A stretch of 64,000 nt of DNA from assembly GCA_043755535.1 (NCBI GenBank), contig JAYUSS010000131.1:10829-74828 (forward strand). The letters are read 5' to 3'. This document shows positions 3-47,525 of the stretch, one piece after another. The notes below the pieces were generated by a model, which had not been told where the DNA came from, ran no database searches, and was given only the letters and a program-made list of their open reading frames with translations. This stretch comes from Candidatus Peregrinibacteria bacterium. GTDB taxonomy: Bacteria; Patescibacteriota; Gracilibacteria; Peribacterales; Peribacteraceae. Within the stretch, counting starts at the first letter, position 1, and the number at the start of each line of letters is the position of its first letter. The position numbers and the translations under genes were made by a program.

Positions 3-3000
3 GCGACGAACAACATTCGTTCGTCGGGATCGTTGATTCTTTCCGGAGCGCAACCGGTGCTGACAGGCACCTATGACACAACCGGCACTGCCCAAGGAGT
101 CACCGTCGCCGGTCGTTACGCTTATGTCGCGGACGGTATAAGCGGACTCCAGATTGTTGCTACCGGTATTCCTGCATCACCGTCGCTCGTTGGTACCTAT
201 GACACAACCGGCACCGCCTACAGCGTCTCCGTTGCCGGTCGTTACGCGTACGTTGGAGACAATACGAGCGGACTCCAGGTCATCGACATCAGCACGCCTG
301 CATCTCCCACATTGGCCGGCACCTACGACACAACCGGCGACGCCTACGGCGTCACCATTGCCGGTCGCTACGTCTACGTCGGAGACGGTACGAGTGGTCT
401 GCAAGTCGTTGGCATACAGGGCATCGACGCACCCAGCGCAACCATCGGCGCAATCGAGACCCATAGCTTGAATGTCCGTGAATCCGCACGCATCAACGCC
501 AACCTGACGGTCGATCGCGGACTCACGGTGGGAGACGGCTTGTATGTCTACGGCCAAACCTCCATGCGCGCCTTCTCCGGATCGGCCCTTACCCTGTCAA
601 CACAGGATCGCGGAGGTGCACCCGCCCTCAATGTCCGCGGCACCATCTCCGGTTCGCTCATTACGCAGAACGGTGCGGGAAGCAACTACTTCTTGGGAAA
701 TCTCGGGATCGGTACTACGACTCCCAAGGCCCGCTTCACCGTCGTCGGCTCCGGTGCCTTTACGGGAACACTCTCCGGTTCTGCATTGAACATTCAAGGA
801 GGAACGAGTTACGTGCTCGGGAACCTCGGCATCGGCAAAACATCCCCTTCGACAAAGCTCGATGTGCTGGGCACCATCTCCGGCTCCCTCATTACCCAGA
901 ACGGAGCGGGAAGCAACTACTTCTTGGGGAATCTCGGCATCGGCGATACAACCCCTGCATCACTCTTTACTGTTGGGAACGGAGACCTCTTCCGAGTGGA
1001 TACAGATGGTCATCTGGGAATGGGAACGGCACCTCTCGCTCAGCAGTTAGTGCGCATTATTGCCACGACAAGCGGAGGCACTGGGCAGGCTGGTATGGTT
1101 GTTTTAGTAACTGGCGATTCAAGCGGAACATCATCAATCGATGGAATATCAGCACAAATTGCAACCTCCGCAGCCGCATATACAGTCGCCACTGCGCGAG
1201 GTTTGCGCATCAATGATGCGACACTCGGTGCGGGGTCGGCCATCACGGCGCAGGTGGGTGTGGATGTCCTGGATCAGACAAGGGGAACATCGAACTACGG
1301 ACTCCGCTCGCTGGTGACATCGGGAACCAATAAATGGAATATCTATGCATCTGGTACTGCACAGAATTACTTGGCAGGGAATCTTGGCATCGGCAAAACG
1401 GTCGCCGCCACCAAGCTCGAAGTTGTCGGTACGATCTCTGGCTCCCTCATTACCCAGAACGGGGCTGGGAATAACTACTTGATGGGGAATGTGGGCATCG
1501 GTACCACGGCACCCAAAGCCCTGCTCGACGTCGCCGGCACCATGTCCGGAAAGATTCTGGTCCTGAGCAGGCTCCAGAACATCGGCGCCACCCAGAGCGC
1601 GATCTGTGTCACCGCCACCGGTGCCATCCTCAAAAACGGCGGCACCAGCACCTGTCTCGTTTCATCTCTGCGCTTCAAGCATGACGTTGCGAGCCTTGAT
1701 AACAATGCCCTCTCCCTCATCGGCGCCCTCCGGCCTGTTTCCTACCGCGACAATGCGACAAACATTCTGAACGTCGGTCTCATCGCCGAAGAAGTGCAGC
1801 AGATCGATCCCCGTCTCGTCTTCTACGAAGCCGACGGTACGACGGTCCGCGGTGTGAAATACGAGAACTTCACGGCGCTGCTTGCCAAGGGCATCCAAGA
1901 ATTGAACACGCGCACGAGCGGCATCACCGCCAACTCAGGCACGACCATCAGCTCCTCTACCGGCAACGGTGCAGCAAGCCTTCTGACCCTCACATCCAAT
2001 GTTTCCTCCACCGGCAATACCGTGCTACGCGTCAACGCGTCGGGTTCTGTCTTCACGGACGGCACCTACAACAGTTCCGGTGCCGACTACGCAGAATGGT
2101 TCTACAGCAAGGATACTCTGAAGCAGGGCGAAGTCGTCTGTATCGATATTACCAAGAACAATGCGGTGGAACGCTGCAAGAGCGACGCCGACAGCAATGT
2201 GATGGGTATCGTCTCCACCAACCCCGCCTTCATTGGAAATAGCATTGGCGGAGCAAGTGGCATCATTCCTCCGGGCTACGCGCTCATCGGTCTCATCGGA
2301 CAGGTTCCTGCCAAGGTCATAGCCGAGGATGGTGAGGCGATCCGTCCGGGAGATGCACTGACTGCCGCCGCGATTCCGGGCTATGCACGCAAGGCAAAGG
2401 CAGGTGAATCCACTGTCGGTGTCGCCCTTGAAGGGTTGGCATCCGGCAAGGGAACGGTCAATGTATTGATCTCCCGCCGCAACAGCTCCATGACCGTCGA
2501 CGCCGTCGGACAGAAGGTCTTGGACACGATCGCGTCAATGGAAATCGAAGATGAAGTGCAGATCATGGTCAGTGCGGCACTCGGAGATCTCAATGTGGAT
2601 GATCAGATCACCGCAGAGGTGACACGGCAGATCGAGGTGATTGCTGCGCAGAATGCGGATATCGAGACGATGAAACTGGATATCGCATCCCTGAAGACGC
2701 AGATCGCCGGTATGGGATCATCTACGGGTACGGGCACCGCCGCGCTGGGCGGCGTACAGACGTTCGATTCGAACGTCTCTACATTGGAAATCGATGGCAC
2801 ACTCGTGACTGGAGGCAATGCAAGAATTGGAGGCGATCTCACCATCGACGGCACCCTCAATGCCTCTTCCCTCTTTGTCCCGAATGGCCTGACTATTGAT
2901 GGAGGAGTGGTGATGCAAGGACTCTTGGATGCACAGAATCTGCATGTATCCGATGAAGCGATCATTGATGGAACACTTACCATCAATGGAACCTTGAACC

Positions 3001-3887
3001 TTGCATCGGGTGCAACCTTGAATCTCGGTTCCGGCGCCCTGACGATGGATCAATTGATTGTCGAGAATGCACTGTTCGTGATGGGTGATATCACCATCAA
3101 GGGCATGGCCACCTTCCTGGGCGACATCAACGTGCAGGGTGAACTCGTCATGAGCAACAAGTACGCAGGCTTCGCGATGATCCCGAAAAACGGAACATCT
3201 GTGACGATCTACTTCGGATCCGGATTCAAAGCGACACCGGTGGTAAGTGTCACGCCAAATGACTTCGTCTTCACAGCCTGGAGAACGGCACCTGTCACAC
3301 AAACCGGATTTACGATCGAACTCGCAGGACCCGCAGACCGCGACGTCACCTTCTCCTGGATCGCGCTGGGTGTCTCTAACCCTGTAATGCTCAATGCAGA
3401 ACTGACGGATGAGGGAACGATCATCTTCCCGCTCGCTTCGGACAACATTCCTGTGTCCTCCAACATGGCATGGAACGCCTGCATCCGCAACATCACGATG
3501 CTCGATGAATCCGGACAGCCACTCTCCTGTGCTCGTTACCACGATGCCTACACCTGGACACACCCGGATCTGCAGATCAGTTTCGTCTGGAACACATCCA
3601 TGACTCCTCCACTCCTCCAATTGCCTGCGGGCTACACCGCACGAGTGACGGAAGATGCGCAGGGCATCATTGATGCGATTAGTGGATCGGAGAATCCGGC
3701 AGCAGGCGCCAGCCCTGATCCTGTCGTCGAAGAGACTCCTGCCGAGGAACCTGTTGTAGAACCTGTTGTGGAAGTGGCTCCTGCAGAAGAACCAGCTCCG
3801 GAACCAGAGGGAACGCCGGAGGAAGAACCTGCTCCCGAAGAAGCGCCGGTGCCGGCTGAGGGGGCAACGGAGAGCCCGGCGATCTAA
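3..3887 (+). CDS. Giant mosaic cell-surface protein, 5' end open to window edge
   Basis: No in-frame stop back to nt 3; the TTG at 33 is only the ORF-track start. LVIVD-like repeats (GRYAYVADGISGLQIV x3). At least 4 copies of a GTISGSLITQNGAGSNYFLGNLGIG tail-fibre-like repeat. Internal peptidase-S74/intramolecular-chaperone-like segment (LRFKHDV..GLIAEEVQQIDPRLV..VKYENFTALLAKGIQEL, nt ~1660-1925). Then a coiled coil, beta-helix-like repeats, an H-type-lectin-like segment and a Pro/Glu-rich tail. Confidence 0.75.
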   Translation, partial: ATNNIRSSGSLILSGAQPVLTGTYDTTGTAQGVTVAGRYAYVADGISGLQIVATGIPASPSLVGTYDTTGTAYSVSVAGRYAYVGDNTSGLQVIDISTPASPTLAGTYDTTGDAYGVTIAGRYVYVGDGTSGLQVVGIQGIDAPSATIGAIETHSLNVRESARINANLTVDRGLTVGDGLYVYGQTSMRAFSGSALTLSTQDRGGAPALNVRGTISGSLITQNGAGSNYFLGNLGIGTTTPKARFTVVGSGAFTGTLSGSALNIQGGTSYVLGNLGIGKTSPSTKLDVLGTISGSLITQNGAGSNYFLGNLGIGDTTPASLFTVGNGDLFRVDTDGHLGMGTAPLAQQLVRIIATTSGGTGQAGMVVLVTGDSSGTSSIDGISAQIATSAAAYTVATARGLRINDATLGAGSAITAQVGVDVLDQTRGTSNYGLRSLVTSGTNKWNIYASGTAQNYLAGNLGIGKTVAATKLEVVGTISGSLITQNGAGNNYLMGNVGIGTTAPKALLDVAGTMSGKILVLSRLQNIGATQSAICVTATGAILKNGGTSTCLVSSLRFKHDVASLDNNALSLIGALRPVSYRDNATNILNVGLIAEEVQQIDPRLVFYEADGTTVRGVKYENFTALLAKGIQELNTRTSGITANSGTTISSSTGNGAASLLTLTSNVSSTGNTVLRVNASGSVFTDGTYNSSGADYAEWFYSKDTLKQGEVVCIDITKNNAVERCKSDADSNVMGIVSTNPAFIGNSIGGASGIIPPGYALIGLIGQVPAKVIAEDGEAIRPGDALTAAAIPGYARKAKAGESTVGVALEGLASGKGTVNVLISRRNSSMTVDAVGQKVLDTIASMEIEDEVQIMVSAALGDLNVDDQITAEVTRQIEVIAAQNADIETMKLDIASLKTQIAGMGSSTGTGTAALGGVQTFDSNVSTLEIDGTLVTGGNARIGGDLTIDGTLNASSLFVPNGLTIDGGVVMQGLLDAQNLHVSDEAIIDGTLTINGTLNLASGATLNLGSGALTMDQLIVENALFVMGDITIKGMATFLGDINVQGELVMSNKYAGFAMIPKNGTSVTIYFGSGFKATPVVSVTPNDFVFTAWRTAPVTQTGFTIELAGPADRDVTFSWIALGVSNPVMLNAELTDEGTIIFPLASDNIPVSSNMAWNACIRNITMLDESGQPLSCARYHDAYTWTHPDLQISFVWNTSMTPPLLQLPAGYTARVTEDAQGIIDAISGSENPAAGASPDPVVEETPAEEPVVEPVVEVAPAEEPAPEPEGTPEEEPAPEEAPVPAEGATESPAI

Positions 3888-3910
3888 GTATCTCGCTGGC
3901 TTCTGGATAA

Positions 3911-4024
3911 CCTCCCCAGCTGCTAGACAACCTCCCCCACCCCTAGCCCCCGTAAAGGGGCGTTGCCCCACGGGGCTTTTACGCCCTCCCCAGCTGCTAG
4001 ACAACCTCCCCCACCCCTAGCCCC
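3911..4024. repeat. Perfect 40-bp direct repeat (3911-3950 = 3985-4024) separated by a 34-bp GC hairpin spacer
   Basis: cctccccagctgctagacaacctcccccacccctagcccc occurs twice. The last 20 nt of each copy equal the terminus of the DUF559 cassette. Confidence 0.9.
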
Positions 4025-4473
4025 TCCCCCGCGAGGGGAGGGGAACATACATATGATCGGATAGAATGAAGAACATTTTCAATATCATGAAGTACTTCTT
4101 CATTGATAAATCGGATGATTTCGATTCCCTCATTATTCATTTCATCCGTACGGATCGCATCATTTTCCTTTTGAGTTGAGTCATCATGAATGGAGCCGTC
4201 CACTTCAATACCTAATTTTGCTTTGTCACAATAGAAATCAAGGATCCTCCCTCTCACCGGGTTCTGCCGCCGAAATCGGACACCGAGCTGATCGAAGCGC
4301 AGAAATTTCCACAAATATTCTTCCGCCTCTGTCGGATTCTTCCTCATCTCACGAACATGCTGCAGCACTGATCCGTTCACCTGAGGTTTTACCTTGTATT
4401 CCTTTTCTTCGTGCTCCCTTCCCCTCGCGGGGGAAGGGCTGGGGATGGGGGAGGGCATGGGTAAAGAAGACAT
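3997..4473 (-). CDS. DUF559 (Vsr-like PD-(D/E)xK) endonuclease domain protein
   Basis: [53 protein letters not shown] matches the DUF559 pattern. The ATG (4473) and TAG (3997) both lie just outside the repeat-bounded cassette. Confidence 0.75.
   Translation of the reverse strand: MSSLPMPSPIPSPSPARGREHEEKEYKVKPQVNGSVLQHVREMRKNPTEAEEYLWKFLRFDQLGVRFRRQNPVRGRILDFYCDKAKLGIEVDGSIHDDSTQKENDAIRTDEMNNEGIEIIRFINEEVLHDIENVLHSIRSYVCSPPLAGEGLGVGEVV
4005..4454 (-). mobile_element. DUF559 endonuclease cassette, copy 1 (450 bp between CCTCCCCC / GGGGGAGG termini)
   Basis: Same outer termini and the same CCCC(T)CGCG(A)GGGG palindromic subterminal blocks as the copy at 10265-10717. The sense frame is open across the whole element. 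Confidence 0.6.
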
Positions 4474-4490
4474 AGGAAACTAATAGCAAC

Positions 4491-5156
4491 CTACCAAGTA
4501 GTCAGCGCATCAAACCCCATCAACACCCCATTCATAATCCCATGAACCCACCCCGACAAGATCGGAAACGGCAGCAACGATTCACCGAAGACAAGGAACA
4601 GTAGAATCCACTGCCCATACTGCATAAACCGGTCATAGCCCTCATGCCAGTCATCGGGCAAAAACACATAGAGGATCTTACTGCCATCAAGCGGTGCCAG
4701 CGGAAACAAGTTGAAGGCCATCAATGCCAAGTTCACATAGAGCGACGCACCGAGAATTTGACCGATGATCGTCATGACAGGAGATCCCCCGCCGATATCG
4801 AGTAGTCCGTACACTCCTCCACCCATCTGTAACGGAAGCACGGACAAGAGAATGAACGCGCCGAATGCGAGAACGAGATTGCTAAAGGGGCCGGCAAGCG
4901 CGACCAGCGACGTATCCCGTGCGTAGTGCTTAAACGCATGCGGGTTCACCGGTACGGGCTTTGCCCACCCGAACCCCACCACCAAAAACATCAACGCTCC
5001 AAGGGGGTCAATATGCGCAATAGGGTTAATCGTGAGCCGCCCTTCGTGCCGTGCGGTATCATCCCCCAACTGGAATGCCGCAAACGCATGCGCCCATTCG
5101 TGAATGGAGAGCGCGATGAGGACGGCGATGATGTAGGTGGGATTTAAAAATTGCAC
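4491..5156 (-). CDS. Site-2 protease family (M50) membrane metalloprotease
   Basis: HEWAHAF (HExxH) in the first TM segment, multiple TM helices, and an LDGS-like second motif (PLAPLDGSKI). Confidence 0.75.
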   Translation of the reverse strand: MQFLNPTYIIAVLIALSIHEWAHAFAAFQLGDDTARHEGRLTINPIAHIDPLGALMFLVVGFGWAKPVPVNPHAFKHYARDTSLVALAGPFSNLVLAFGAFILLSVLPLQMGGGVYGLLDIGGGSPVMTIIGQILGASLYVNLALMAFNLFPLAPLDGSKILYVFLPDDWHEGYDRFMQYGQWILLFLVFGESLLPFPILSGWVHGIMNGVLMGFDALTTW

Positions 5157-5168
5157 GAGGGGAGGATA

Positions 5169-5265
5169 CAGAAGATCCAGAGGATCCAGAAGACTCAGAA
5201 GATCTGCTTCCTGCCCCCTCCTCTGGATCCTCTGGATCCTCTAAGTCCTCTGAGCCCTCTGAGTC
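5169..5265. repeat. Inverted arms of a 9-nt-period word repeat in the divergent M50/rpmB intergenic region
   Basis: Left arm: cagaagatc cagaggatc cagaagact cagaagatc (5169-5204). Right arm: ctctggatc ctctggatc ctctaagtc ctctgagcc ctctgagtc (5221-5265). The arms are imperfectly complementary. Confidence 0.85.
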
Positions 5266-5327
5266 TTCCCATCTCTTGAAAGTTCCCGTTGACTCTTAGG
5301 TAAACCCCCATTAACCTGCCAGAACTT

Positions 5328-5537
5328 ATGGCAAGGATCTGCGCTAAAACCGGCAAGAAGACGACGTTCGGTAACACCCGAAGCCACTCGCTGCGCTCCA
5401 CACGCCGCACATGGAAGGTGAATCTCATCAAAAAGCGTGTGTTTGACCCTGCAACAGGTGAATTCAAGACAATGCGCGTTGCCGCTTCGTACCTCCGCAC
5501 GCTCGCGAAGAGGATGCAGCAGGGGAAGCGAGTATAA
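5328..5537 (+). CDS. rpmB: 50S ribosomal protein L28
   Basis: MARICAKTGKKTTFGNTRSHSLRSTRRTWKVNL is the typical L28 N-terminus; 69 aa. Confidence 0.9.
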   Translation: MARICAKTGKKTTFGNTRSHSLRSTRRTWKVNLIKKRVFDPATGEFKTMRVAASYLRTLAKRMQQGKRV

Positions 5538-5538
5538 A

Positions 5539-5617
5539 GTATTGGGTATTGAGTATTAGGTATGATGACGATGCTCTTTTTCGTATACCCAATACCTAAT
5601 ACTCAATACCCAATACT
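5539..5617. terminator. Perfect 26-bp inverted repeat (bidirectional terminator-like hairpin) between convergent rpmB and arfB
   Basis: agtattgggtattgagtattaggtat (5539-5564) is exactly complementary to 5592-5617, with a 27-nt loop. The arms are built from a 7-nt period (gtattgg/gtattga/gtattag). The right arm overlaps the arfB 3' end. Confidence 0.75.
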
Positions 5618-6022
5618 ACCACCATCCACTGACCCTTTTCGTGTTTGCTTAATAACACCGCGATCCCGTTTTTCAGCAACCATCTTCTCTTTCGCACGCT
5701 TGGATCGCCTTTTCTTTTGCTTACGGATCTTAAACGCAGCCTTGGTAATGCGCGACTCCTCCCCTTTCTCCTTCTCTTCCAGCTTGAGAATCAGGAGCTT
5801 CCACGCACTTAAGCGGTTTTTGCTCTGTTCGCGGTGCTTCTGCATTTTTACTTCGATGCCCGTTGGCAGGTGAATAAGCTGAACGACGCTCGATGTCTTA
5901 TTGATCTTTTGCCCCCCATGACCGCTCCCACGGACAAAGCGCTCCTCCACGTCTTCTGGCTGAATCTTCAACTCCTCCGCCAAAGCCAGAAGGTCTGGCG
6001 ACAATTCGATGGGAAACGACAT
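5603..6022 (-). CDS. arfB: Peptidyl-tRNA hydrolase ArfB (class I release-factor-like GGQ protein)
   Basis: About 139 aa, GSGHGGQKINKTSS (GGQ motif), basic C-terminal tail. Confidence 0.8.
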   Translation of the reverse strand: MSFPIELSPDLLALAEELKIQPEDVEERFVRGSGHGGQKINKTSSVVQLIHLPTGIEVKMQKHREQSKNRLSAWKLLILKLEEKEKGEESRITKAAFKIRKQKKRRSKRAKEKMVAEKRDRGVIKQTRKGSVDGGSIGY

Positions 6023-6218
6023 ACGCCAATCGTAGCATGAGACGGCTTGTCGGCCGTAGCCCAGAGGCGAAGGCTGAGGAAGGGCATGGGGAGAAGGCGG
6101 ATCGCCTTGGAGTATAGAGCAAATTGCCTATACTATGCCCCGCCTTGGAGAGGTCGCATAGATGGCGCCTTGTGCGCCATCGCACATCCTCATCATTGGT
6201 CGTTCTGTCTTAATCTTT

Positions 6219-6308
6219 GGAGAGGTCGCATAGTGGCCTAGTGCGCACGCTTGGAAAGCGTGTAGATCCGCAAGGGTCTCGGGAGTTCGAATCTCCCCCT
6301 CTCCGCCA
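6219..6308 (+). tRNA. tRNA-Ser (anticodon GGA), CCA encoded
   Basis: Folded by hand. Acceptor GGAGAGG/CCTCTCC, 3-bp D stem, anticodon stem CACGC/GCGTG with loop TTGGAAA, long variable arm (GATCC..GGGTC), T arm GGGAG TTCGAAT CTCCC. Confidence 0.9.
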
Positions 6309-6442
6309 TTCGACTCGCAGCCGCTGCGCGGCAATGCTCGCTCATGGTCGTCGCGCCTCTTGGCGCTCCGGCCATTCCTTTACTGAATCGAATGACCCTG
6401 AGCGAAGCCGCAGCGGAGTCGAAGGGCCCTTTTCGATTACAA

Positions 6443-6467
6443 CAAAAACAGCCCCGAAGGACTGCTT
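6443..6467 (-). terminator. Intrinsic terminator downstream of the 6488-6808 gene
   Basis: The minus strand reads agcagtccTTCGgggctgttttt: a stem with a tetraloop followed by a T-run. Confidence 0.65.
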
Positions 6468-6487
6468 TATAATCGCTGAATGTAGAA

Positions 6488-6808
6488 TTATTTCTTCTTC
6501 ACCTCACACGAGCAGCCGCAACACTTCATCGCAGTCTTTTGCAGGAAGAACAAGCACAAGACCAACGCGACAATGGAGAGCGATCCTGTGGATGTACCGA
6601 ATGCAAAGCCGCTCGAAAGCACGTGCGCCTTAAAGACACCGACTAGTGCAGCGAGGGTAACAACGGCATTCAGCACGAGTGACACGAGGGACAATGCATC
6701 GCACGCGGCACAGGCCATACCTTTTTTCTTAGACTTACCAAACATAGAGAGGAGGAGGAAAGTGGATAAAAGTGTACCACCACGGAAAATGAGAACAATT
6801 CTGTACAC
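6488..6808 (-). CDS. Small membrane protein with Cys-rich C-terminus (hypothetical)
   Basis: Hydrophobic segments; C-terminal CCGCSCEVKKK. The start may be the internal MFGKSKKKG (about 6745). Followed by a terminator. Confidence 0.45.
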   Translation of the reverse strand: MYRIVLIFRGGTLLSTFLLLSMFGKSKKKGMACAACDALSLVSLVLNAVVTLAALVGVFKAHVLSSGFAFGTSTGSLSIVALVLCLFFLQKTAMKCCGCSCEVKKK

Positions 6809-6890
6809 ATGAAACGGATTGACGAAATCCTACTTCCTTACTTCCATACCTCCTACCTTCCTTACCCCCGAATCTGTATTCTATGCTCGT

Positions 6891-9317
6891 ATGAAAATTT
6901 CTCTCGAATGGTTGGGTCAGTTTGTCACGTGGACCGATTCTGACCCTGCTGTCATCGCCGAGCGCTTAACACGTTCCACTGCCGAGGTGGAAGAACTGGA
7001 AGTACAAGGGGCACTGCTCGCACACTGCTGCGTGGGGGAAATCGTATCGCTCAAACAACACCCCGATGCAGACCGCCTCAAGTTGGCAGAAGTAAAAACT
7101 GATAAAGGGATAAAGAATGTCGTGTGCGGAGGAACAAACTTATATGAAGGCATGCTCGTGGCCTTTGCGCATGTCGGGGCGACCGTGAAGTGGCATGGTG
7201 GTGAATTGATGAAACTTGAACCGGTGAAGATCCGCGGAGTTGCAAGCGAAGGGATGATTTGTGCTGCAGAGGAGCTGGGGCTGGAATCGCTGCTACCTCC
7301 CAAACCGGAAGATGGCGAACGACCGGTTATTGATCTTTCACGAATGAATGGCGTACAGACGAGCGGCGCGCGCGTCTCTACCCCTCTTCGCGATGCCCTT
7401 CATTTAACTGATACGGTGCTGCATTTCAGCAATACCGCCATCACCGCACGACCCGATCTCTTCTCACACATCGGCTTCGCCCGTGAGTGTGTCGCACTCG
7501 GCCTCGCAAAGCCTAAAAAGACTGCTGTAAAGACGTCCCACGGGGACGTCTCTCGTCGCACCAAAAAGAGCGAAAGCCTCGCCATAAAAGTCGACTGCCC
7601 CGACCTCGTCCCCCGCTACCTCTCCGCATCGCTCTCCCTAGACTCGCTGGGGGAAACGCCCGAGTGGATGAAGCAGCGACTCGCGTCCGTGGGAATCCGC
7701 AGCATCAGTCTACCGGTCGATATCACCAACTACGTGATGATCGAAATCGGCGTCCCTATGCACTGCTTTGATGCAGACGATATCGACGGAACAGTTCACA
7801 TGCGTCTCAGTACGAAAAAGGAGAGCTTGATGACCCTCGACAATAAAAAATGGGATCTGCCCGAAGGCTGTTTAGTCTTAAGTGATGACAAAGGTGTCTT
7901 CGACCTTGTCGGCATTATGGGAGGACTTCGCAGCAGCACGAAAGATTCTACGAAGAACATTTTCCTCCATGCACTCTCAATTGATCCAGTCACTATTCGC
8001 AAAGCGATCATTGGTACAGGGCTACGCACCGACGCCTCTACCGTCTACGAAAAAGGCGTACCGGGCATCACGACAGAACAAGGCTTTTACCGGGCATTGG
8101 AGCTGATGTTGGAGCTGATCCCCGGTGCTAAACTTGCATCAGAAATCGACGAGAAAGGGCATAACGGAAAAGCTCCATCGATCAAACTTTCACTTGATGA
8201 CGTTCGTGCCACACTCGGCCTTAATATTGGTGACAAAGAGATTGTAAAAATCTTGGAGGATCTAGGATGTGAAGTAAAAGAAGAAAAAGCTAAAAGCCAA
8301 AAGCTAGAAGCTAGAAGCTCCACCGTTACACCGCCATTGCATCGATTGCGCGATCTCGTTGGCCCTCATGATATTCTCGAAGAAATAGGCCGCATTCACG
8401 GCTTCGATAAAGTAGAACCCGTCATGCCAAGCGCACCCATGCAGCTCCCCAAGCGTGACCTGCGTCTCCACAAGCTCCGTGAAGACTTGGTACGCAGCGG
8501 CTACTGGGAACTCATGCCACTCTCGTTTGTGAGCCCCCAGTTACTCGAGCGCTGTAACTTAGATCCCAAAGAAGCGATCAAGGTAAAAAACCCGATCGGA
8601 GAAGAGACGTCACTCATGCATACCTGCCCCCTGCCTCAACTCCTGGTCCATGCAGAACACATGCTGCCACGTGCCGAAGGGTCACTCAGTACGTTCCAAT
8701 GCGCCAATGTGTTTGATGCCAAGGGGAACCAGACATTTGCACTCGGGATGCTCCTCTCTGCAAAAGAAGAAACAGATTTGTTGGATGATCCACTCTTGGT
8801 GATCAAAGGACAACTCCTGGATGCCGTTGCAGCAACTGGCCAGAGTGTCGAGATCCATGAGATGAAAAAAGTACCGGCAATTGCTCACCCTGGGCGATCG
8901 GCAGACGTCGTGTTCCGCGGGAAATCGATCGGTAAGATCTACGAAATCCACCCTGTCGTGCGCCAACGCTTCGGTCTGACTCATCGGGTTGCAGGGGCGA
9001 CTCTCGACTTATCGACTCTGCTCGCCTCTCCATCGCCTGTTGCCGTGCAGAAAAAGCTCTCGATCTTCCCTGCTGTGACGTACGACGTCACGGTTACGCG
9101 AACACAGAAAGATGCACTGGGTCCGCTGCTACGTAAACTACGCAGTGGGAGCGAGCTTTTGGAAGCTGTGTCCGTCCACGATCTATACGCCGGGAAACCT
9201 CTGGAGAAAGGCTCCTACAACCTGACACTGAGATTTGTGTACCGGGCGAAGGATAGGACGCTGACGGAGGAGGAGGTGAAGAAGGAGCATGGGAAAGCGC
9301 TGGGAATGGTGCAGTGA
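6891..9317 (+). CDS. pheT: Phenylalanine--tRNA ligase beta subunit
   Basis: MKISLEWL start, tRNA-binding domain (HPDADRLKL..VVCGG), B3/4, B5 and C-terminal anticodon-binding-like regions. ATG at 6891 is preferred over the upstream TTG at 6819. Confidence 0.9.
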   Translation: MKISLEWLGQFVTWTDSDPAVIAERLTRSTAEVEELEVQGALLAHCCVGEIVSLKQHPDADRLKLAEVKTDKGIKNVVCGGTNLYEGMLVAFAHVGATVKWHGGELMKLEPVKIRGVASEGMICAAEELGLESLLPPKPEDGERPVIDLSRMNGVQTSGARVSTPLRDALHLTDTVLHFSNTAITARPDLFSHIGFARECVALGLAKPKKTAVKTSHGDVSRRTKKSESLAIKVDCPDLVPRYLSASLSLDSLGETPEWMKQRLASVGIRSISLPVDITNYVMIEIGVPMHCFDADDIDGTVHMRLSTKKESLMTLDNKKWDLPEGCLVLSDDKGVFDLVGIMGGLRSSTKDSTKNIFLHALSIDPVTIRKAIIGTGLRTDASTVYEKGVPGITTEQGFYRALELMLELIPGAKLASEIDEKGHNGKAPSIKLSLDDVRATLGLNIGDKEIVKILEDLGCEVKEEKAKSQKLEARSSTVTPPLHRLRDLVGPHDILEEIGRIHGFDKVEPVMPSAPMQLPKRDLRLHKLREDLVRSGYWELMPLSFVSPQLLERCNLDPKEAIKVKNPIGEETSLMHTCPLPQLLVHAEHMLPRAEGSLSTFQCANVFDAKGNQTFALGMLLSAKEETDLLDDPLLVIKGQLLDAVAATGQSVEIHEMKKVPAIAHPGRSADVVFRGKSIGKIYEIHPVVRQRFGLTHRVAGATLDLSTLLASPSPVAVQKKLSIFPAVTYDVTVTRTQKDALGPLLRKLRSGSELLEAVSVHDLYAGKPLEKGSYNLTLRFVYRAKDRTLTEEEVKKEHGKALGMVQ
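8285..8319. repeat. Five tandem 7-nt words (aaaagct aaaagcc aaaagct agaagct agaagct) inside pheT
   Basis: Read directly. Encodes ..KAKSQKLEARS.. in a linker. The same word family occurs at 17054-17088 and 20878-20940. Confidence 0.85.
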
Positions 9318-9377
9318 GTCAATCGACAATGTTTCCATACTTCCATAGCATCGCAAGCAACTTCTCCCCCTTAAAAC

Positions 9378-10100
9378 ATGCGCGCCGCTCTTCCTTCTTC
9401 CGCTCTTGTTGTTGCAGTGATTGCAGTGGCTTCGTCGATTGTTGTGTTTTCACAATTGACTGCGCAGATATATCCGTCAAGTACCAGCCCAATACCAATA
9501 TCAAGACCAACTCCATATTTATGTGAATATGAGGTTCCGGCGGCTACCGGTTGTACTGGTGCAGATAGAGTAATATGGCAAGGCAATTTACGAATAATGA
9601 CCATATGCAGATACGGAGTTGGTACAATACTGCCCAACAGATATGCCCCTCCCCCTTACTGCAGATGTGATTCTTATGGATATTGCAGTCCCATCACCTT
9701 ATCAACGTCGACATCAACCTCCAGTTCAGCATCCTCAAGATCATCGTCTTCTAAAGCATCATCTAAATCTTCATCTTCCAGTGTGATGGATTGTCTAAGC
9801 TTAAATGCATTGAATGCAATCCCACAATGCCCTGCAAGCGCAAAATGCTCCACACCGGGAACATCCTGCCAGACAGTTTTTATAAACAACGATTTAACGA
9901 AGCCAACCTGCGGATGCCGCACACAATCATCGTCATCTTCATCATCCTCAATAGTAGCATGTTTTGGACCGTCCTTCGCTTGTCCCACCAATGGCAATTG
10001 TTCGACAAAACCCAATACAACGTGTCGGACAAAAACGATAAATGGCGCAGCTATATGTGGATGTTATTTACCGGATGCAGCAACATATAAAGCTCGGTGA
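9378..10100 (+). CDS. Secreted/anchored Cys- and Ser-rich protein (hypothetical)
   Basis: N-terminal hydrophobic segment, poly-Ser linkers, and two similar Cys-rich modules (C..C..C.T....C.T..IN.....CGC). Confidence 0.5.
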   Translation: MRAALPSSALVVAVIAVASSIVVFSQLTAQIYPSSTSPIPISRPTPYLCEYEVPAATGCTGADRVIWQGNLRIMTICRYGVGTILPNRYAPPPYCRCDSYGYCSPITLSTSTSTSSSASSRSSSSKASSKSSSSSVMDCLSLNALNAIPQCPASAKCSTPGTSCQTVFINNDLTKPTCGCRTQSSSSSSSSIVACFGPSFACPTNGNCSTKPNTTCRTKTINGAAICGCYLPDAATYKAR

Positions 10101-10113
10101 TATAATCAAATGC

Positions 10114-11142
10114 ATGTCCATCGTCACAAAAACCGGCGACAAAGGCGAAACCGGCCTGTTTGGCGGACAGCGAGTACCCAAAGACGACGTACGGATCGAA
10201 ACGATCGGCACGGTGGATGAACTGAATGCTGTGCTTGGGATGGTCATCGCATCGCTGCGGGCGACCTCCCCCTTCCCCCAGCCCCTTCCCCCGCGAGGGG
10301 CAGGGGAGCGCCATGAGGAAGACTATAGATGCAACCATCAAATCAATGGATCGGTGCTGGAGCATGCTCGGGAAATGCGTAAAAGTCCGACGAACGCCGA
10401 AAAGTATTTATGGCATCATTTACGCTCCGATCAACTTGGCATCCGCTTTCGTAAACAGCATCCTATAGGAGGGTATATTCTGGATTTTTACTGCCCGAAA
10501 GCAAAACTCGGCATCGAAGTAGATGGCCCGATTCATGATGATCCTATGCGGCAAGAAGCAGATGATCGGAGGACAGATAAACTCAGTGACGAAGGAATAT
10601 TCATTCTGCGCTTTAAAAATGAGGAAGTGTTGTACGACACAAAAACAGTACTCAACACCATCCGCATGCACATTCATCCCCCTCCCCTCGCGGGGGAGGG
10701 GTTAGGGGAGGGGGAGGCTGTTGATGAAAAGGAAAAGTTAGGAATAGGAGAGGATTTGATCAGAATGCTCACAAAAATCCAAAACACCCTCTTCACCCTC
10801 GGTGCCGACCTCGCGACCCCCCACGAAAACAATAAAGCCGTAGTCCCGCGTATCGAAAAAGAGCACATTGAGGAAATTGAAGGGTGGATTGCGACCCTCG
10901 AAGAAACCCCCTTACCCCCCTACTTCATTTTGCCCGGGGGATCGAAATCTGCAGCCGAACTACACCTTGCACGGGCAATGTGCCGACGAGCTGAACGGTG
11001 TACTGTCACACTCTCCAGGCGCACAGAGATCGGATCAAACGTCGTACAATACTTGAATAGACTCAGTGATTTCCTATTTCTCGCGTCTTTAGAGGCAAAT
11101 CGCCTCGCAAACGTCGAGAATATTCGCGTTTCGTATTTCTAG
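10114..11142 (+). CDS. PduO-type ATP:cob(I)alamin adenosyltransferase interrupted in frame by a DUF559 domain
   Basis: N-terminus [34 protein letters not shown]-terminus [50 protein letters not shown]. About 151 extra codons lie between them. Confidence 0.8.
10265..10717 (+). mobile_element. DUF559 endonuclease cassette, copy 2 (453 bp), inserted in frame in the adenosyltransferase gene
   Basis: Bounded by CCTCCCCC..CCCCGCGAGGGG (left) and CCCCTCGCGGGGGAGGGG..GGGGGAGG (right), which are inverted copies of each other. The interior encodes [39 protein letters not shown]. Confidence 0.65.
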
Positions 11143-11231
11143 TGTCACATCCGCTTGACGGCTATCCCCTATGTTCTGTAGCCTTCACCGGCTTTTCTGC
11201 GCCCAAGAATGGACGCGTTCAACTCTTCAAC

Positions 11232-11375
11232 ATGTTAGGTAAACTCAAATGGCGTCGGCGTCTGCGTAAACACGGTTTCTTGTCTCGTATGATGACAAAG
11301 GACGGTCGCCGCGTACTTTCCCGCCGTCGTTCGGCTGGCAGAAAGCGTTTGACGGTGCAGAAGAAGACGAAGTGA
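11232..11375 (+). CDS. rpmH: 50S ribosomal protein L34
   Basis: [42 protein letters not shown] matches the L34 pattern. Internal ATG of the 11142 ORF. Confidence 0.8.
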
Positions 11376-42858: not shown

Positions 42859-44253
42859 ATGTTTCGCCGCTCCGCCGCCGTACTCGCAGCAATCGTACTT
42901 CCTTCTATAGCGCTTGCCGTAGCATTCCCCGATGTCTCCCCCAGCCATTCGTACCGCGAGCAGATCGAAACGCTTGCCGACATGGGTGTTGTGAAGGGAA
43001 ATCCTCCTTCGGCAGGCTCAGGACAGGCTCCGTTATTCATGCCTGAAAGTACAATAAACAGAGCGGAGCTTTTGACGCTCCTTTATAGGGCGGCAGGGAA
43101 GACCCCGGCAACGCCGACCAAGTCTTGCTTTAAAGATGTGAATACAGACGCCTGGTTTTCGGCCGTGGTGTGCGACAGTGCGAAGAACGGATACGTGGGT
43201 GGCTACCCCGATCCTTCGGCAGGCTCAGGACAGGCTCCACTTTTTAAGCCGGGCAACGCAGTCAACCGTGTCGAGGCTCTTAAAATGATTCATACGGTGC
43301 TCGGGCTCAACATCAATGCAACTGCTTCGACCGGGCCACTCAAGGCCTATAGCGATGTGTCCTTCTCTGCGTGGTACACGCCGTACATGACGAGTGCGTT
43401 TGTGCACAAAGTTCTGCCGGTCGCGGGACAGACGGGCAATTTGTTTATGCCCGAGGCTGCACTCAGTCGCGGTGAGGCTGCAGCGTATGTTTTCAACGGA
43501 CTCGGACTCACGCTGCGCGGATACACGGTGAGCAGTAGCAGTAGCAGCAGTACGGAAACAGAGAGGTCATCATCGTCATCATCTGCTCGCACGACTGCGT
43601 CATCCAAGTCGACGGAGTCCGCACCGATACTCTTGGATGTCGACTTCCCGTTTAGTGATGACGGAATGTTTAAGGGAAAAACGTCCAAGGTCTACAAGTT
43701 CACACAGAAGACAGCAGTCGTCGCAGAGATCACCGTGGATGTCTCGGTAAATGAATCTGCGATGTGCAGACTGTATAAGTTGGAAGCCGAAACATCGTTT
43801 GCGTTGGAGTACTACGTGGGACAAGTGGTGAATAATCACTGCTGGATGCGAGTGGCACTTGCACCTGCCAACTACCAGTTGGAAGTAGTCCCCGGTACCA
43901 AAGATGGTAACTACAAACTGTCGACAAAGAAGGTGACCGGCGACGGCAATGACGGATTCAGCCAAGCAGCGAAACTCCTCAAGGGTTCGCCAAAAACTGG
44001 GTATCTGGAAAGTGAGGATTACGGCGAATTTTATACCTTTACGCTCACAAAAACAGAGAAGCTAACAGTGGTTGTGAGTGAGGCAGATAACACCACATGT
44101 TTGATTTTCCCGATGGCGGATGTCGACTTGTTCGGCTTTAGCGGACCGGTGTGTAACGAAGAGTACGAACTGCCGAAGGGGAAGTATGTCGTGGGAGTTA
44201 CCCGTCGTGATCAGCGCCAAGGAAAAGTATCGTTCTCGATTCGGTACGAGTAA
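42859..44253 (+). CDS. Surface protein with two SLH-like repeats and a C-terminal beta-rich domain
   Basis: Signal peptide. FPDVSPSHSYREQIETLADMGVVKG..INRAELLTLL and FKDVNTDAWFSAVVCDSAKNGYVGGYPD..VNRVEALKMI. Ser-rich linker. Confidence 0.7.
   Translation: MFRRSAAVLAAIVLPSIALAVAFPDVSPSHSYREQIETLADMGVVKGNPPSAGSGQAPLFMPESTINRAELLTLLYRAAGKTPATPTKSCFKDVNTDAWFSAVVCDSAKNGYVGGYPDPSAGSGQAPLFKPGNAVNRVEALKMIHTVLGLNINATASTGPLKAYSDVSFSAWYTPYMTSAFVHKVLPVAGQTGNLFMPEAALSRGEAAAYVFNGLGLTLRGYTVSSSSSSSTETERSSSSSSARTTASSKSTESAPILLDVDFPFSDDGMFKGKTSKVYKFTQKTAVVAEITVDVSVNESAMCRLYKLEAETSFALEYYVGQVVNNHCWMRVALAPANYQLEVVPGTKDGNYKLSTKKVTGDGNDGFSQAAKLLKGSPKTGYLESEDYGEFYTFTLTKTEKLTVVVSEADNTTCLIFPMADVDLFGFSGPVCNEEYELPKGKYVVGVTRRDQRQGKVSFSIRYE
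43005..43031. repeat. 27-nt element tccttcggcaggctcaggacaggctcc, copy 1, in frame in SLH repeat 1
   Basis: Identical to 43212-43238. Encodes PSAGSGQAP. Confidence 0.9.
43212..43238. repeat. 27-nt element, copy 2, in frame in SLH repeat 2
   Basis: Identical 27-mer. The flanking codons differ from those of copy 1. Confidence 0.9.
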
Positions 44254-44254
44254 T

Positions 44255-44279
44255 CCGGCTTCGCTCTTGCTACGCCGAG
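44255..44279. repeat. 25-nt element ccggcttcgctcttgctacgccgag immediately after a stop codon
   Basis: Identical to 47501-47525; a variant lies at 48269-48295. Confidence 0.9.
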
Positions 44280-46596: not shown

Positions 46597-47499
46597 ATGA
46601 GCGAAACTTCCCAAGTGAACGGCGAGCCGGCCTTGCGCTACCCCGCATCCCTGACATTGATTCGACATGCACAGTCGAAATACAACGAGCTAAAGGGTAT
46701 TTCAACGAAGTGGGATTCCTTTCGGGTATTTCATGAGCGTTTTAAGGCAGAATTTTATAGCAATGCCAAAGAGAGGATCGTCCGACCGGACTTAGCGCTG
46801 GAAGTAGTCAGAAAAAGGTGGCCAAGCCCCGAGTTGTACGAGCTTGCTGTAGCATTTTATGAGCAGATTCATGAGTTGATGCAGGGAGTGAGTGATTCCG
46901 AAACTCCTATTACCGATAAAGGATTGCAACAGGCAACTGAAACCGGTCGGCATATTGCGGAGCATGTACCGAAGCCGGATATTATTTATCTCTCACCGTA
47001 TCTCCGAACACGTCAGACACTGGAAGCAATTCTTGCAGGAGCCCCTGCCGATTGGAGAGATGTGCAGAAGTGGGAAAATGAACCCGTGCGTGAGCAGGAG
47101 CATGGTATGAATACGGTGTTTAACGATTGGCGCTTAAGTTACGTGTTTGACCCGATGGAAATGCTCCATTCCGTGAAACAGGGTGAGTATGATTATCGCT
47201 ATAGAGGAGGGGAAAATAGGTATGATGTGCGAGATAGGGCCAGTCGTTTTATTGGTCGCTTGAGGCGTAAGCACGAAGGAGAAAATGTGCTTGTGGTATC
47301 GCACCATCTGACAATTCTCGCAACGCTTGGAGAGCTTCTCCATTGGACTCGTGAAGAATTTTTAGACTGGGATGAAAATCGTAAGCCGGCAAATTGTGGA
47401 GTGACGATTCTCCGTCGCGAGGAAGGAGTCAGTCGAACAGGAAAGGACCTTCTGATTCTTGGAGAAGGTGGTTACAGCAGGAAGTTGTATACGGAGTGA
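46597..47499 (+). CDS. Histidine phosphatase (phosphoglycerate-mutase-like) family protein
   Basis: LIRHAQSKYN (RHG-type motif) and VVSHHLTI (second His). Confidence 0.7.
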   Translation: MSETSQVNGEPALRYPASLTLIRHAQSKYNELKGISTKWDSFRVFHERFKAEFYSNAKERIVRPDLALEVVRKRWPSPELYELAVAFYEQIHELMQGVSDSETPITDKGLQQATETGRHIAEHVPKPDIIYLSPYLRTRQTLEAILAGAPADWRDVQKWENEPVREQEHGMNTVFNDWRLSYVFDPMEMLHSVKQGEYDYRYRGGENRYDVRDRASRFIGRLRRKHEGENVLVVSHHLTILATLGELLHWTREEFLDWDENRKPANCGVTILRREEGVSRTGKDLLILGEGGYSRKLYTE

Positions 47500-47500
47500 C

Positions 47501-47525
47501 CCGGCTTCGCTCTTGCTACGCCGAG
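47501..47525. repeat. 25-nt element ccggcttcgctcttgctacgccgag, second copy, again directly after a stop codon
   Basis: Identical to 44255-44279. Confidence 0.9.

Follow-up and report, generated by a model that had tools for sequence, protein, structure and literature searches.

Within a 64,000-nt stretch of a Candidatus Peregrinibacteria genome (GenBank assembly GCA_043755535.1, contig JAYUSS010000131.1, positions 10,829 to 74,828 of the forward strand; hereafter the window, in whose coordinates all unprefixed positions are given), a 450-bp element on the minus strand at 4005-4454, here called cassette copy A, encodes a DUF559 nuclease between two inverted, GC-rich ends. We read copy A as an intact, free-standing member of a mobile DUF559 cassette family with inverted, structure-forming GC-rich ends, in which the nuclease would act and the host would do the copying, and we give this reading a probability of roughly 0.55. 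On sequence grounds its descriptive core is well supported, namely that copy A is an intact, selected, free-standing cassette whose triplex-type ends are common to non-coding derivatives; how the cassette moves is what we infer. A second cassette, copy B (453 bp, 10265-10717, plus strand), lies in frame within a PduO-type cob(I)alamin adenosyltransferase gene (open reading frame (ORF) 10042-11142). The two copies are paralogues and are the sole cassettes in the 1.47-Mb source genome (153 contigs). Relative to a preliminary description of this DNA, two points are new: the ends belong to a genome-wide repeat family, and they have a three-block triplex layout.

Organization and reading frame of copy A

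Copy A consists of a left inverted end, a DUF559 core and a right inverted end. Its limits, drawn from the inverted arms and from alignment with copy B, give 450 bp (150 codons), and the length and coordinates of the preliminary description are correct, including its remark that the length is a multiple of three. Each arm (4005-4047 and 4412-4454) measures 43 nt, and the two are 88% complementary. On the minus strand the left (5') end at 4412-4454 is translated as PSPIPSPSPARGRE, while the right (3') end at 4005-4047 contributes 13 residues, and a three-block triplex-type motif is located in each. As was described earlier, copies A and B have the same outer 8-mers (CCTCCCCC...GGGGGAGG) and a CGCG-centred palindrome in common; when up to 3 mismatches are allowed, the palindrome CCCCTCCCCTCGCGGGGGAGGGG has four matches in the window, all of them at the four cassette ends, and none in 100 shuffles.

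The ORF of copy A (3997-4473, minus strand, 158 aa) runs uninterrupted from the ATG at 4473 to the TAG at 3997-3999. The ATG lies 19 nt outside the left end, and the earlier placing of the start codon in unique flank holds, the codon lying outside the repeat. An alternative ATG at 4458, also outside the repeat, would give 153 aa and is the start picked by the public gene call. The TAG was likewise located correctly, beginning 6 nt past the right end (GAG GTT GTC TAG), but its assignment to flanking DNA needs correction. It sits in a 20-nt end-extension module, TTGTCTAGCAGCTGGGGAGG (3985-4004, minus strand), of which an identical copy is found at 3911-3930, and which follows the end of a miniature inverted-repeat transposable element (MITE) at C127:64-83 with one mismatch. 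Because the module recurs, the stop codon is repeat-associated and not part of a unique flank. Two codons before the ATG at 4473, a TAG at 4480-4482 closes the frame, so that copy A is not part of a larger host ORF.

The end unit contains a stop in one frame per orientation, by way of its CTAG, and leaves four of six frames open; an open frame through the ends is therefore weak evidence when taken alone. The real weight of the frame argument is in the length, a multiple of three, and in continuity with the DUF559 frame.

The encoded nuclease and the selection upon it

Residues 38-140 (4054-4362, minus strand) form a DUF559 nuclease domain (PF04480, Pfam E 5.2e-29), and the score of 100.8 bits against a cut-off of 20.6 places copy A within the family. 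The NCBIfam equivalog model for YcjD, NF007294, also matched (E 2.3e-16), with 60 bits against a cut-off of 218, and with a score below that cut-off copy A is not a YcjD equivalog. All 12 residues that are invariant across 29 family members are present (E51, W55, Q70, D79, F80, E90, D92, G93, H96, D105, R121 and N124), as are the D...E-x-D...H core motif and the features of the Vsr-like PD-(D/E)xK fold. An AlphaFold model built from a 40-sequence alignment predicts an alpha/beta core with pLDDT values of 83-97 and unstructured tails where the ends are translated. The best Foldseek match to this model was the DUF559 structure 3HRL (TM 0.84), with the catalytic domain of the homing endonuclease I-Bth0305I (TM 0.75, E 1.4e-4) and then Vsr (1VSR and 1CW0) following; the sequence search agrees (3HRL E 2.5e-13, I-Bth0305I E 0.017). 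Pfam searches found DUF559 alone plus a weak MTES_1575 match in copy A, with no Hint/splicing (intein) domain, and PduO plus DUF559 in the copy B ORF, again with no intein domain. By Pfam and NCBIfam no recognised transposase of the DDE, HUH, serine or tyrosine type was found in copy A. Membership of a defence system was considered and set aside, PADLOC having returned weak nuclease-domain matches and nothing more.

The preliminary description put the amino acid identity of the two copies at about two-thirds. Formal alignment gives a slightly lower figure, 61% over residues 2-158 and 62% over 149 aligned codons, with cores at 61-62%. Over 123 core codons the proportion of synonymous differences (pS) is 0.89, which is saturated, and that of nonsynonymous differences (pN) is 0.25, giving a pN/pS of 0.28 (bootstrap 0.21-0.37); nucleotide identity at the three codon positions is 68, 81 and 36%. 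The closest relative of copy A, a cassette on the metagenome contig L066 treated below, gives over 112 core codons a pS of 0.75, a pN of 0.15 and a pN/pS of 0.20 (0.13-0.29). With pN far under a saturated pS, the copy A protein has evolved under purifying selection, as had been suspected, and its 12 invariant residues have been kept. The same saturation makes dating from synonymous divergence (dS) impossible.

At the right end, 13 codons compared between copies A and B give a pS of 0.09, a pN of 0.07 and 92% nucleotide identity, and the match (93% over 43 nt) runs 4 nt beyond the end of the element, to 4001. For copies of this age, the ends are far more alike in DNA than would be expected. The earlier proposal of selection on both protein and ends would have fallen had the ends been no more similar than chance predicts, or had dN/dS been close to 1; neither is the case. 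For the ends, however, that proposal stands in part. Their conservation is borne out by the pS of 0.09 and by compensatory stem pairs (see below), but they are not private to two cassettes, as about 30 dispersed copies exist. Because the ends belong to a dispersed family, homogenisation or recent copying could explain part of their conservation without selection on copy A.

Structure of the ends

Read on the minus strand, the right end comprises a C-stem (4043-4035), the loop TCGCG (4034-4030), G-block 1 (4029-4021), the loop CTA (4020-4018), G-block 2 (4017-4009) and GAGG (4008-4005), with the blocks CCCCTCCCC TCGCG GGGGAGGGG CTA GGGGTGGGG. The left end, read on the plus strand, repeats this order with a C-stem at 4416-4424, a loop at 4425-4429, G-block 1 at 4430-4438, a loop at 4439-4441, G-block 2 at 4442-4450 and GAGG at 4451-4454, the blocks being CCCTTCCCC TCGCG GGGGAAGGG CTG GGGATGGGG. 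Both therefore show the three-block arrangement of C-stem, loop of 3-6 nt, G-stem, 3-nt loop and mirror G-block. Judged by this arrangement, the ends have the layout of bacterial intrastrand-triplex repeats of the BoxC/PIT/TMECO type.

TMECO repeats are defined as CCCTCNCCC N3-6 GGGNGAGGG N3 GGGNGAGGG (Holder et al. 2015, PMC4666352). Like BoxC/PIT/TMECO repeats, the ends studied here have a 9-nt C-stem, a loop of 3-6 nt, a 9-nt G-stem, a 3-nt loop (TTA or CTA) and a 9-nt G-block; they too are dispersed, often form inverted pairs and vary in number between close strains. Unlike TMECO, these putative triplex-forming ends carry the T at a different stem position. TMECO repeats have, moreover, been described as intergenic and without an associated enzyme (PMC4666352). 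The strict TMECO consensus was found 23 times in Escherichia coli MG1655 and 0 times in the source genome, because of the shifted T. A generalised three-block scan found 23 motifs in the source genome and none in the shuffled genome. A chance or low-complexity origin of the ends was accordingly rejected, there being no palindrome in the window shuffles and no three-block motif in the shuffled genome against the 23.

Across cassettes of many genera the stems differ (CCCCTCCCC, CCCTTCCCC, CCCCTCTCCC, CCCCTTCCTCC and others), and each is matched by its own partner, the hairpin stems of related cassettes changing by compensatory pairs. Pairing of stems within an element was 0.95, against 0.79 when arms were swapped between elements, and 0 of 2000 shuffles reached it, although these statistics use the best hairpin near each end, which inflates within-element pairing. 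The third block repeats the G-stem in mirror order, T or A facing the A of the stem, and covaries with it across relatives (0.77 against 0.72, with 0 of 1000 shuffles reaching the observed value).

In a minimum-free-energy fold of a 491-nt RNA (-187.7 kcal/mol, z -4.95), the left and right ends of copy A come together as a terminal stem some 45 bp long. Such a stem is what would be expected if the ends paired in the transcript, were processed in an RNase III-like manner, and the insert were removed or regulated as RNA. We regard an RNA-level intervening sequence of this kind as barely credible. Excision of the RNA would make frame continuity, a length that is a multiple of three and, in copies within genes, stop-free ends needless; host mRNAs would be destroyed by cleavage that is not followed by ligation; and no intron or other Rfam family was found over 3600-11300 at E up to 1.

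Dispersed repeats sharing the cassette ends

When a profile of the end unit was searched with nhmmer against the whole 1.47-Mb genome, 31 matches were obtained on many contigs. Of these, about 14 are part of a MITE, roughly 143 nt long, that matches the cassette ends at its termini. Others are solo units situated in frame within long ORFs, with the hosts confirmed by Pfam: GuaA (GMP synthase), LepA, UvrC, RsmB/F, a TsaB-like protein and a GT4 glycosyltransferase. Family ends are mostly followed by TT(G)(T), and the flanks of copies A and B and of the MITEs often read ..AA | ..TT, resembling an extension of the inverted repeat. A solo unit on C44 matches the left end of copy B over about 46 nt.

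Also on C44 (39174-39261) is an 88-nt element in which 12 nt (GAGCACGAAAAG) separate an A-type left end from a right end. The core of copy A begins with GAGCACGAAGAAAAGG, to which these 12 nt are similar, and the C44 element would look like an internal-deletion derivative of an A-type cassette. Being 88 nt between the outer 8-mers, it rules out an exact multiple-of-three rule for all derivatives and indicates that the true termini may include one or two further bases. Copy A itself has the inverted terminal repeats and dispersed copies of a MITE family, but it is not small and non-coding. Encoding a complete nuclease domain, it is not itself a MITE, a description that fits the 143-nt, 88-nt and solo derivatives.

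In-frame residence of short repeats has a precedent in Rickettsia palindromic elements (RPEs) and other intragenic MITEs, mobile palindromes that lie in frame in unrelated housekeeping genes and are translated with the host protein (PMC10969869). The solo units and 143-nt MITEs in LepA, GuaA, UvrC, RsmB/F and GT4 resemble these. RPEs, however, have no known autonomous protein-coding partner (PMC10969869), whereas the 450-bp members here carry a complete nuclease domain in the same frame and have three-block triplex-type ends.

The abundance of these short forms (about 27 solo units and MITEs against two cassettes) bears on the main rival to our reading, in which triplex-type repeats are mobilised by a host process or by another enzyme and DUF559 is either cargo between repeats or homes into a repeat, so that the "inverted ends" would be the two halves of an invaded repeat. 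Besides the numbers, it would accommodate the 88-nt C44 element as an uninvaded repeat instead of a deletion product, and it is in keeping with the partial or degenerate extra ends that adjoin both cassettes (3911-3950 beside copy A and about 10730-10754 beside copy B). Under this explanation, however, one would not expect the DUF559 family to be tied to the same end architecture in many genera, both free-standing and in frame, nor a CCTCC stem variant to be almost confined to cassettes of one clade of the core tree, spanning two host genes. Strong purifying selection on a mere passenger would also need another explanation. We consider it unlikely on balance, while ranking it ahead of homing, an ordinary host gene and RNA excision, which are less likely still.

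Several observations on individual repeat copies are recorded here. On contig C105 (about 9026-9061) an entire MITE of about 143 nt (...KQPPPNPQPPFPRGGQGGF...) is contained in the open frame of a 799-aa UvrC, and the Pfam match to the UvrC RNase H domain is split in two, suggesting another insertion. A 1,283-aa ORF on contig C31, resembling isoleucyl-tRNA synthetase (IleRS), contains a solo end unit in frame; two apparent histidine-phosphatase-like segments (RHGQAEHN... and VRHGETDWN...) also lie within the synthetase. In guaA (C9, 9985-10016) the loop of end units harbours a small palindromic module of a second kind (..GATCAGCCTTCGCTCTTGCTACGGCCGAC..), and related words are found in the window at 44248-44279 and 47494-47525, pointing to at least two interacting repeat families.

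Copy B and cassettes in related genomes

A search of 40 relatives yielded uninterrupted PduO genes in 25, among them the closest (84% aa identity), and these genes have no insert at the place of copy B. Copy B is thus a lineage-specific insertion. The host loop at this place is about 10 residues longer in the window than in the relatives. Immediately after copy B, at 10730-10754, 15 of the 25 positions of AAGGAAAAGTTAGGAATAGGAGAGG agree with the end block GGGGAGGGGTTAGGGGAGGGGGAGG, and nine of the 10 differences are G-to-A; it may be a decayed older end at this site.

The metagenome contig L066 (JGI) is syntenic with the window downstream of PduO and carries a cassette in PduO at the loop occupied by copy B. 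This cassette is 73% identical to copy A and about 62% identical to copy B. In a tree of core domains, copy A, L066 and copy B form one clade in which copy A and L066 are sisters; since it nests with PduO cassettes, the intergenic copy A belongs to the PduO-associated cassette lineage. Either the PduO site would have been occupied by two lineages or there would have been exchange between species. In the same tree the cassette of a CofE-like ligase gene nests among those of RibE (riboflavin synthase), and the RibE cassettes fall in two clades, patterns consistent with movement between genes.

A DUF559 match is present in 138 of 401 genomes of the class. Among the listed full-length matches with end-encoded residues in the standard-code family, nearly all lie within open frames of 342-1,388 aa. 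In-frame hosts of these full-length relatives are MurD, a GT4 glycosyltransferase, the CofE-like ligase, RibE and RecG, and further ones are RsmG, TsaC/Sua5, an ELP3-like enzyme and a secreted protein. Copy A, which stands free and has both ends in frame, is an exception in the cassette family. Free-standing DUF559 genes between inverted hairpins, in frame or otherwise, are nevertheless widespread in the class and extend to lineages in which TGA is a sense codon. DUF559 matches of the families f11, f22 and f30 contain several in-frame TGA codons and no other stops, which is consistent with TGA being read there as an amino acid, and hairpin-flanked cassettes occur in these families too (L044, L046).

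Two of the alternatives can be weighed against these distributions. In the first, copy A would be an ordinary cellular gene for a Vsr-like host nuclease of repair or restriction type, with incidental repeats on either side. Purifying selection, intact conserved residues and the commonness of DUF559 in the class are all in line with this. It is nevertheless very improbable, as five of seven same-genus relatives are without any DUF559 and none of the seven has it at the copy A locus, the inverted ends are the same as those of the in-frame copy B and are traversed by the frame, and related cassettes interrupt essential genes.

In the second, the element would be a classical homing endonuclease gene that cuts one cognate empty allele and is copied by homologous repair, with copy A a stray. 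I-Bth0305I (PDB 3R3P), a Vsr-like EDxHD homing endonuclease, belongs to the same PD-(D/E)xK clade as DUF559 (PMC3424549), and the cassette resembles it both in catalytic fold (TM and sequence E as given above for copy A) and in being a selfish nuclease gene inside other genes. Homing would also account for the PduO loop being filled in a syntenic sister organism by a cassette nearer to copy A than to copy B and empty in the closest relative, and for two cassette clades at the RibE site. However, I-Bth0305I resides in a self-splicing group I intron, whereas the cassette is without intron or intein domain and has structured inverted ends and non-coding derivatives. Simple allele homing does not predict insertion at many unrelated sites, a copy between genes, structured ends in common or scattered non-coding derivatives, and no similarity is apparent between the insertion flanks of copies A and B. 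We hold homing to be improbable, though less so than the cellular gene, and prefer the mobile cassette with its own structured ends.

Surroundings and insertion site of copy A

Copy A lies in a 603-nt spacer (3888-4490) between two genes that converge with their 3' ends. On the plus strand a surface-protein gene (33-3887, 1,284 aa) runs towards an M50 peptidase gene on the minus strand (4491-5156, assigned by Pfam), which is context outside the element and whose stop is separated from the ATG at 4473 by 17 nt. The DUF559 frame is out of frame with M50, and co-transcription of copy A with the M50 gene is plausible.

In six same-genus genomes the M50 orthologues have a full-length C-terminus and no DUF559 downstream, and at two of these six loci a long convergent ORF ends 0-45 nt past the M50 frame. 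The convergent ORFs of the relatives have a Pro/Glu/Val-rich tail similar to that of the large protein in the window, yet tblastn with the last 500 residues of the window surface protein gave no significant match at those loci. As homology of the convergent ORFs is not demonstrable, an empty site for copy A is well supported but not base-exact.

Whether 3997-4473 interrupts a remnant host gene was a question left by the preliminary description. It does not, the frame closing just upstream of the ATG and the M50 C-terminus being full length. Such a gene would in any case be confined to flanks of merely 36 nt on one side and 117 nt on the other, the latter mostly repeat modules.

Beyond the end-extension module that carries the stop, a 34-nt hairpin module (3951-3984, minus strand; plus strand CGTAAAGGGGCGTTGCCCCACGGGGCTTTTACGC) represents a dispersed repeat, and the same module follows the end unit on C64 and C122. 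Next to it, at 3911-3950 on the minus strand, a second, partial end with a second extension module forms a perfect 40-nt repeat of 3985-4024 (100% identity). The partial end (3931-3950) has the tail of a G-block, CTA, G-block 2 and GAGG, and the extension module occupies 3911-3930. The layout of 3911-3984 resembles a nested or tandem insertion at the ...GGGGAGG|TT junction, or a slipped duplication.

Downstream of one M50 orthologue (L024, genome G003, 2163-2310), a different palindromic element of about 100 nt has inserted at the M50 3' end. It brings duplicated last M50 codons (WVHGIMN...), such that M50 keeps a functional-looking C-terminus.

Co-occurrence of nuclease and repeats

Within the genus, the hairpin pattern was counted 19 and 14 times in the two cassette-bearing genomes (the source genome and G005) and 0, 0, 0, 0, 1 and 2 times in six genomes without cassettes. 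In E. coli K-12, a strict TMECO/BoxC repeat lies 168 nt downstream of the DUF559 gene ycjD; with 23 TMECO in 4.64 Mb, the estimated chance of one so near ycjD is about 0.004. The gene is present in 3,378 of 5,426 complete E. coli genomes. Strict TMECO repeats number 23 in MG1655 and 29 in 55989, both with PF04480, and 1 in IHE3034 and 2 in CFT073, both without it; as these four strains are two related pairs, the co-occurrence is suggestive and not proof.

The joint occurrence of cassettes and repeats, seen in the genus as well as in E. coli, is a further point against the passenger explanation set out above, which in turn gains from relatives with many repeats and no end-bearing DUF559. Genomes G019, G018 and G023 are of this kind, with 23, 9 and 6 repeats and DUF559 that is either end-less or absent, and across the family the link is therefore imperfect.

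Between the stop-codon hairpin of ycjD and the BoxC/TMECO repeat (L067, 6206-6440), the last 13 or so ycjD codons are duplicated (ETVLENI...). A degenerate hairpin covers the ycjD stop codon, and the layout resembles the junction duplication beside copy A.

A model for movement and its relation to known systems

For the mobile cassette we envisage the following course. The nuclease would act on the folded ends, on target sites, or on both, and host repair or replication would then copy the element; short derivatives would be moved in trans. As the ends are nearly stop-free and the cassette length is a multiple of three, insertions in phase would be translated through and survive within genes, being read as Pro/Gly-rich linkers plus an extra domain, even where the host gene is essential. 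Copy A would have landed in non-coding DNA, where it could be translated only by means of the upstream in-frame ATG and the TAG of a variant end extension, and it may act as a free source of nuclease.

A number of points weigh against this course of events. No target-site duplication was found at copy A, copy B or the MITE copies. Neither a promoter nor a terminator for copy A stood out above the shuffle background, and no Shine-Dalgarno sequence is evident. Copies A and B are old, and recent movement of a cassette is not documented in the source genome. To our knowledge, no nuclease activity, cut site or transposition intermediate has been reported for any DUF559 protein, and we know of no PD-(D/E)xK nuclease that carries out strand transfer by itself. 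The repeat-rich genomes G019, G018 and G023, the inflation of the hairpin statistics and the relatedness of the E. coli strains count on the same side.

Nuclease-bearing insertions that are kept in frame inside a host protein gene are known from inteins with homing endonucleases and from ShiLan, where an insertion in a phage methylase is unspliced, is devoid of a splicing domain and is regarded as a tolerated loop (PMC11855218). The cassette resembles both in this respect. Inteins, however, are self-splicing through Hint domains, which the cassette does not have, and the HNH nuclease of ShiLan is in a different frame from its host, with no inverted structured ends or MITE derivatives described.

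A different parallel is offered by REPtrons, in which a single-copy gene for a RAYT, an HUH/Y1 transposase that works on single-stranded hairpins, is flanked by inverted hairpin repeats; these repeats are also scattered through the genome, singly and in inverted pairs. The REP/REPIN-RAYT system and the cassette thus share an enzyme gene between inverted copies of a dispersed hairpin repeat, but the cassette encodes a PD-(D/E)xK nuclease instead, and its repeats are accommodated within coding sequence.

We propose tentatively that GC-rich intrastrand-triplex repeats (BoxC/PIT/TMECO and relatives) could have their missing enzyme partner in the DUF559 nucleases. As structure-specific, Vsr-like enzymes, these would recognise the folded three-block ends and drive the copying of their own cassette and, in trans, of the short non-coding repeats, which would constitute a third lifestyle of selfish nucleases besides introns and inteins, one that is kept by translation through host genes. 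We rate this broader proposal as doubtful, and below the reading of copy A itself. In the literature searched, no description of in-frame DUF559 cassettes or of such elements was found.

Implications

Selfish DNA in frame is known for short repeats such as the RPEs, and nuclease genes within genes are known as introns and inteins. In our reading the cassette is spliced neither as RNA nor as protein while it carries an intact nuclease under purifying selection through essential genes, and it would show how much insertion bacterial proteins tolerate. Through its shared ends and the 88-nt C44 element, copy A ties the coding cassette to dispersed triplex-type repeats.

In uncultured bacteria, cassettes of this type cause gene calls to come out inflated and split, and assembly breaks fall within them, as on contig L066. 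For BoxC/PIT/TMECO repeats we know of no enzyme or function assigned since the 1990s. The co-occurrence of DUF559 and repeats, in the source lineage and at ycjD of E. coli, provides a candidate enzyme that is directly testable in a laboratory strain.

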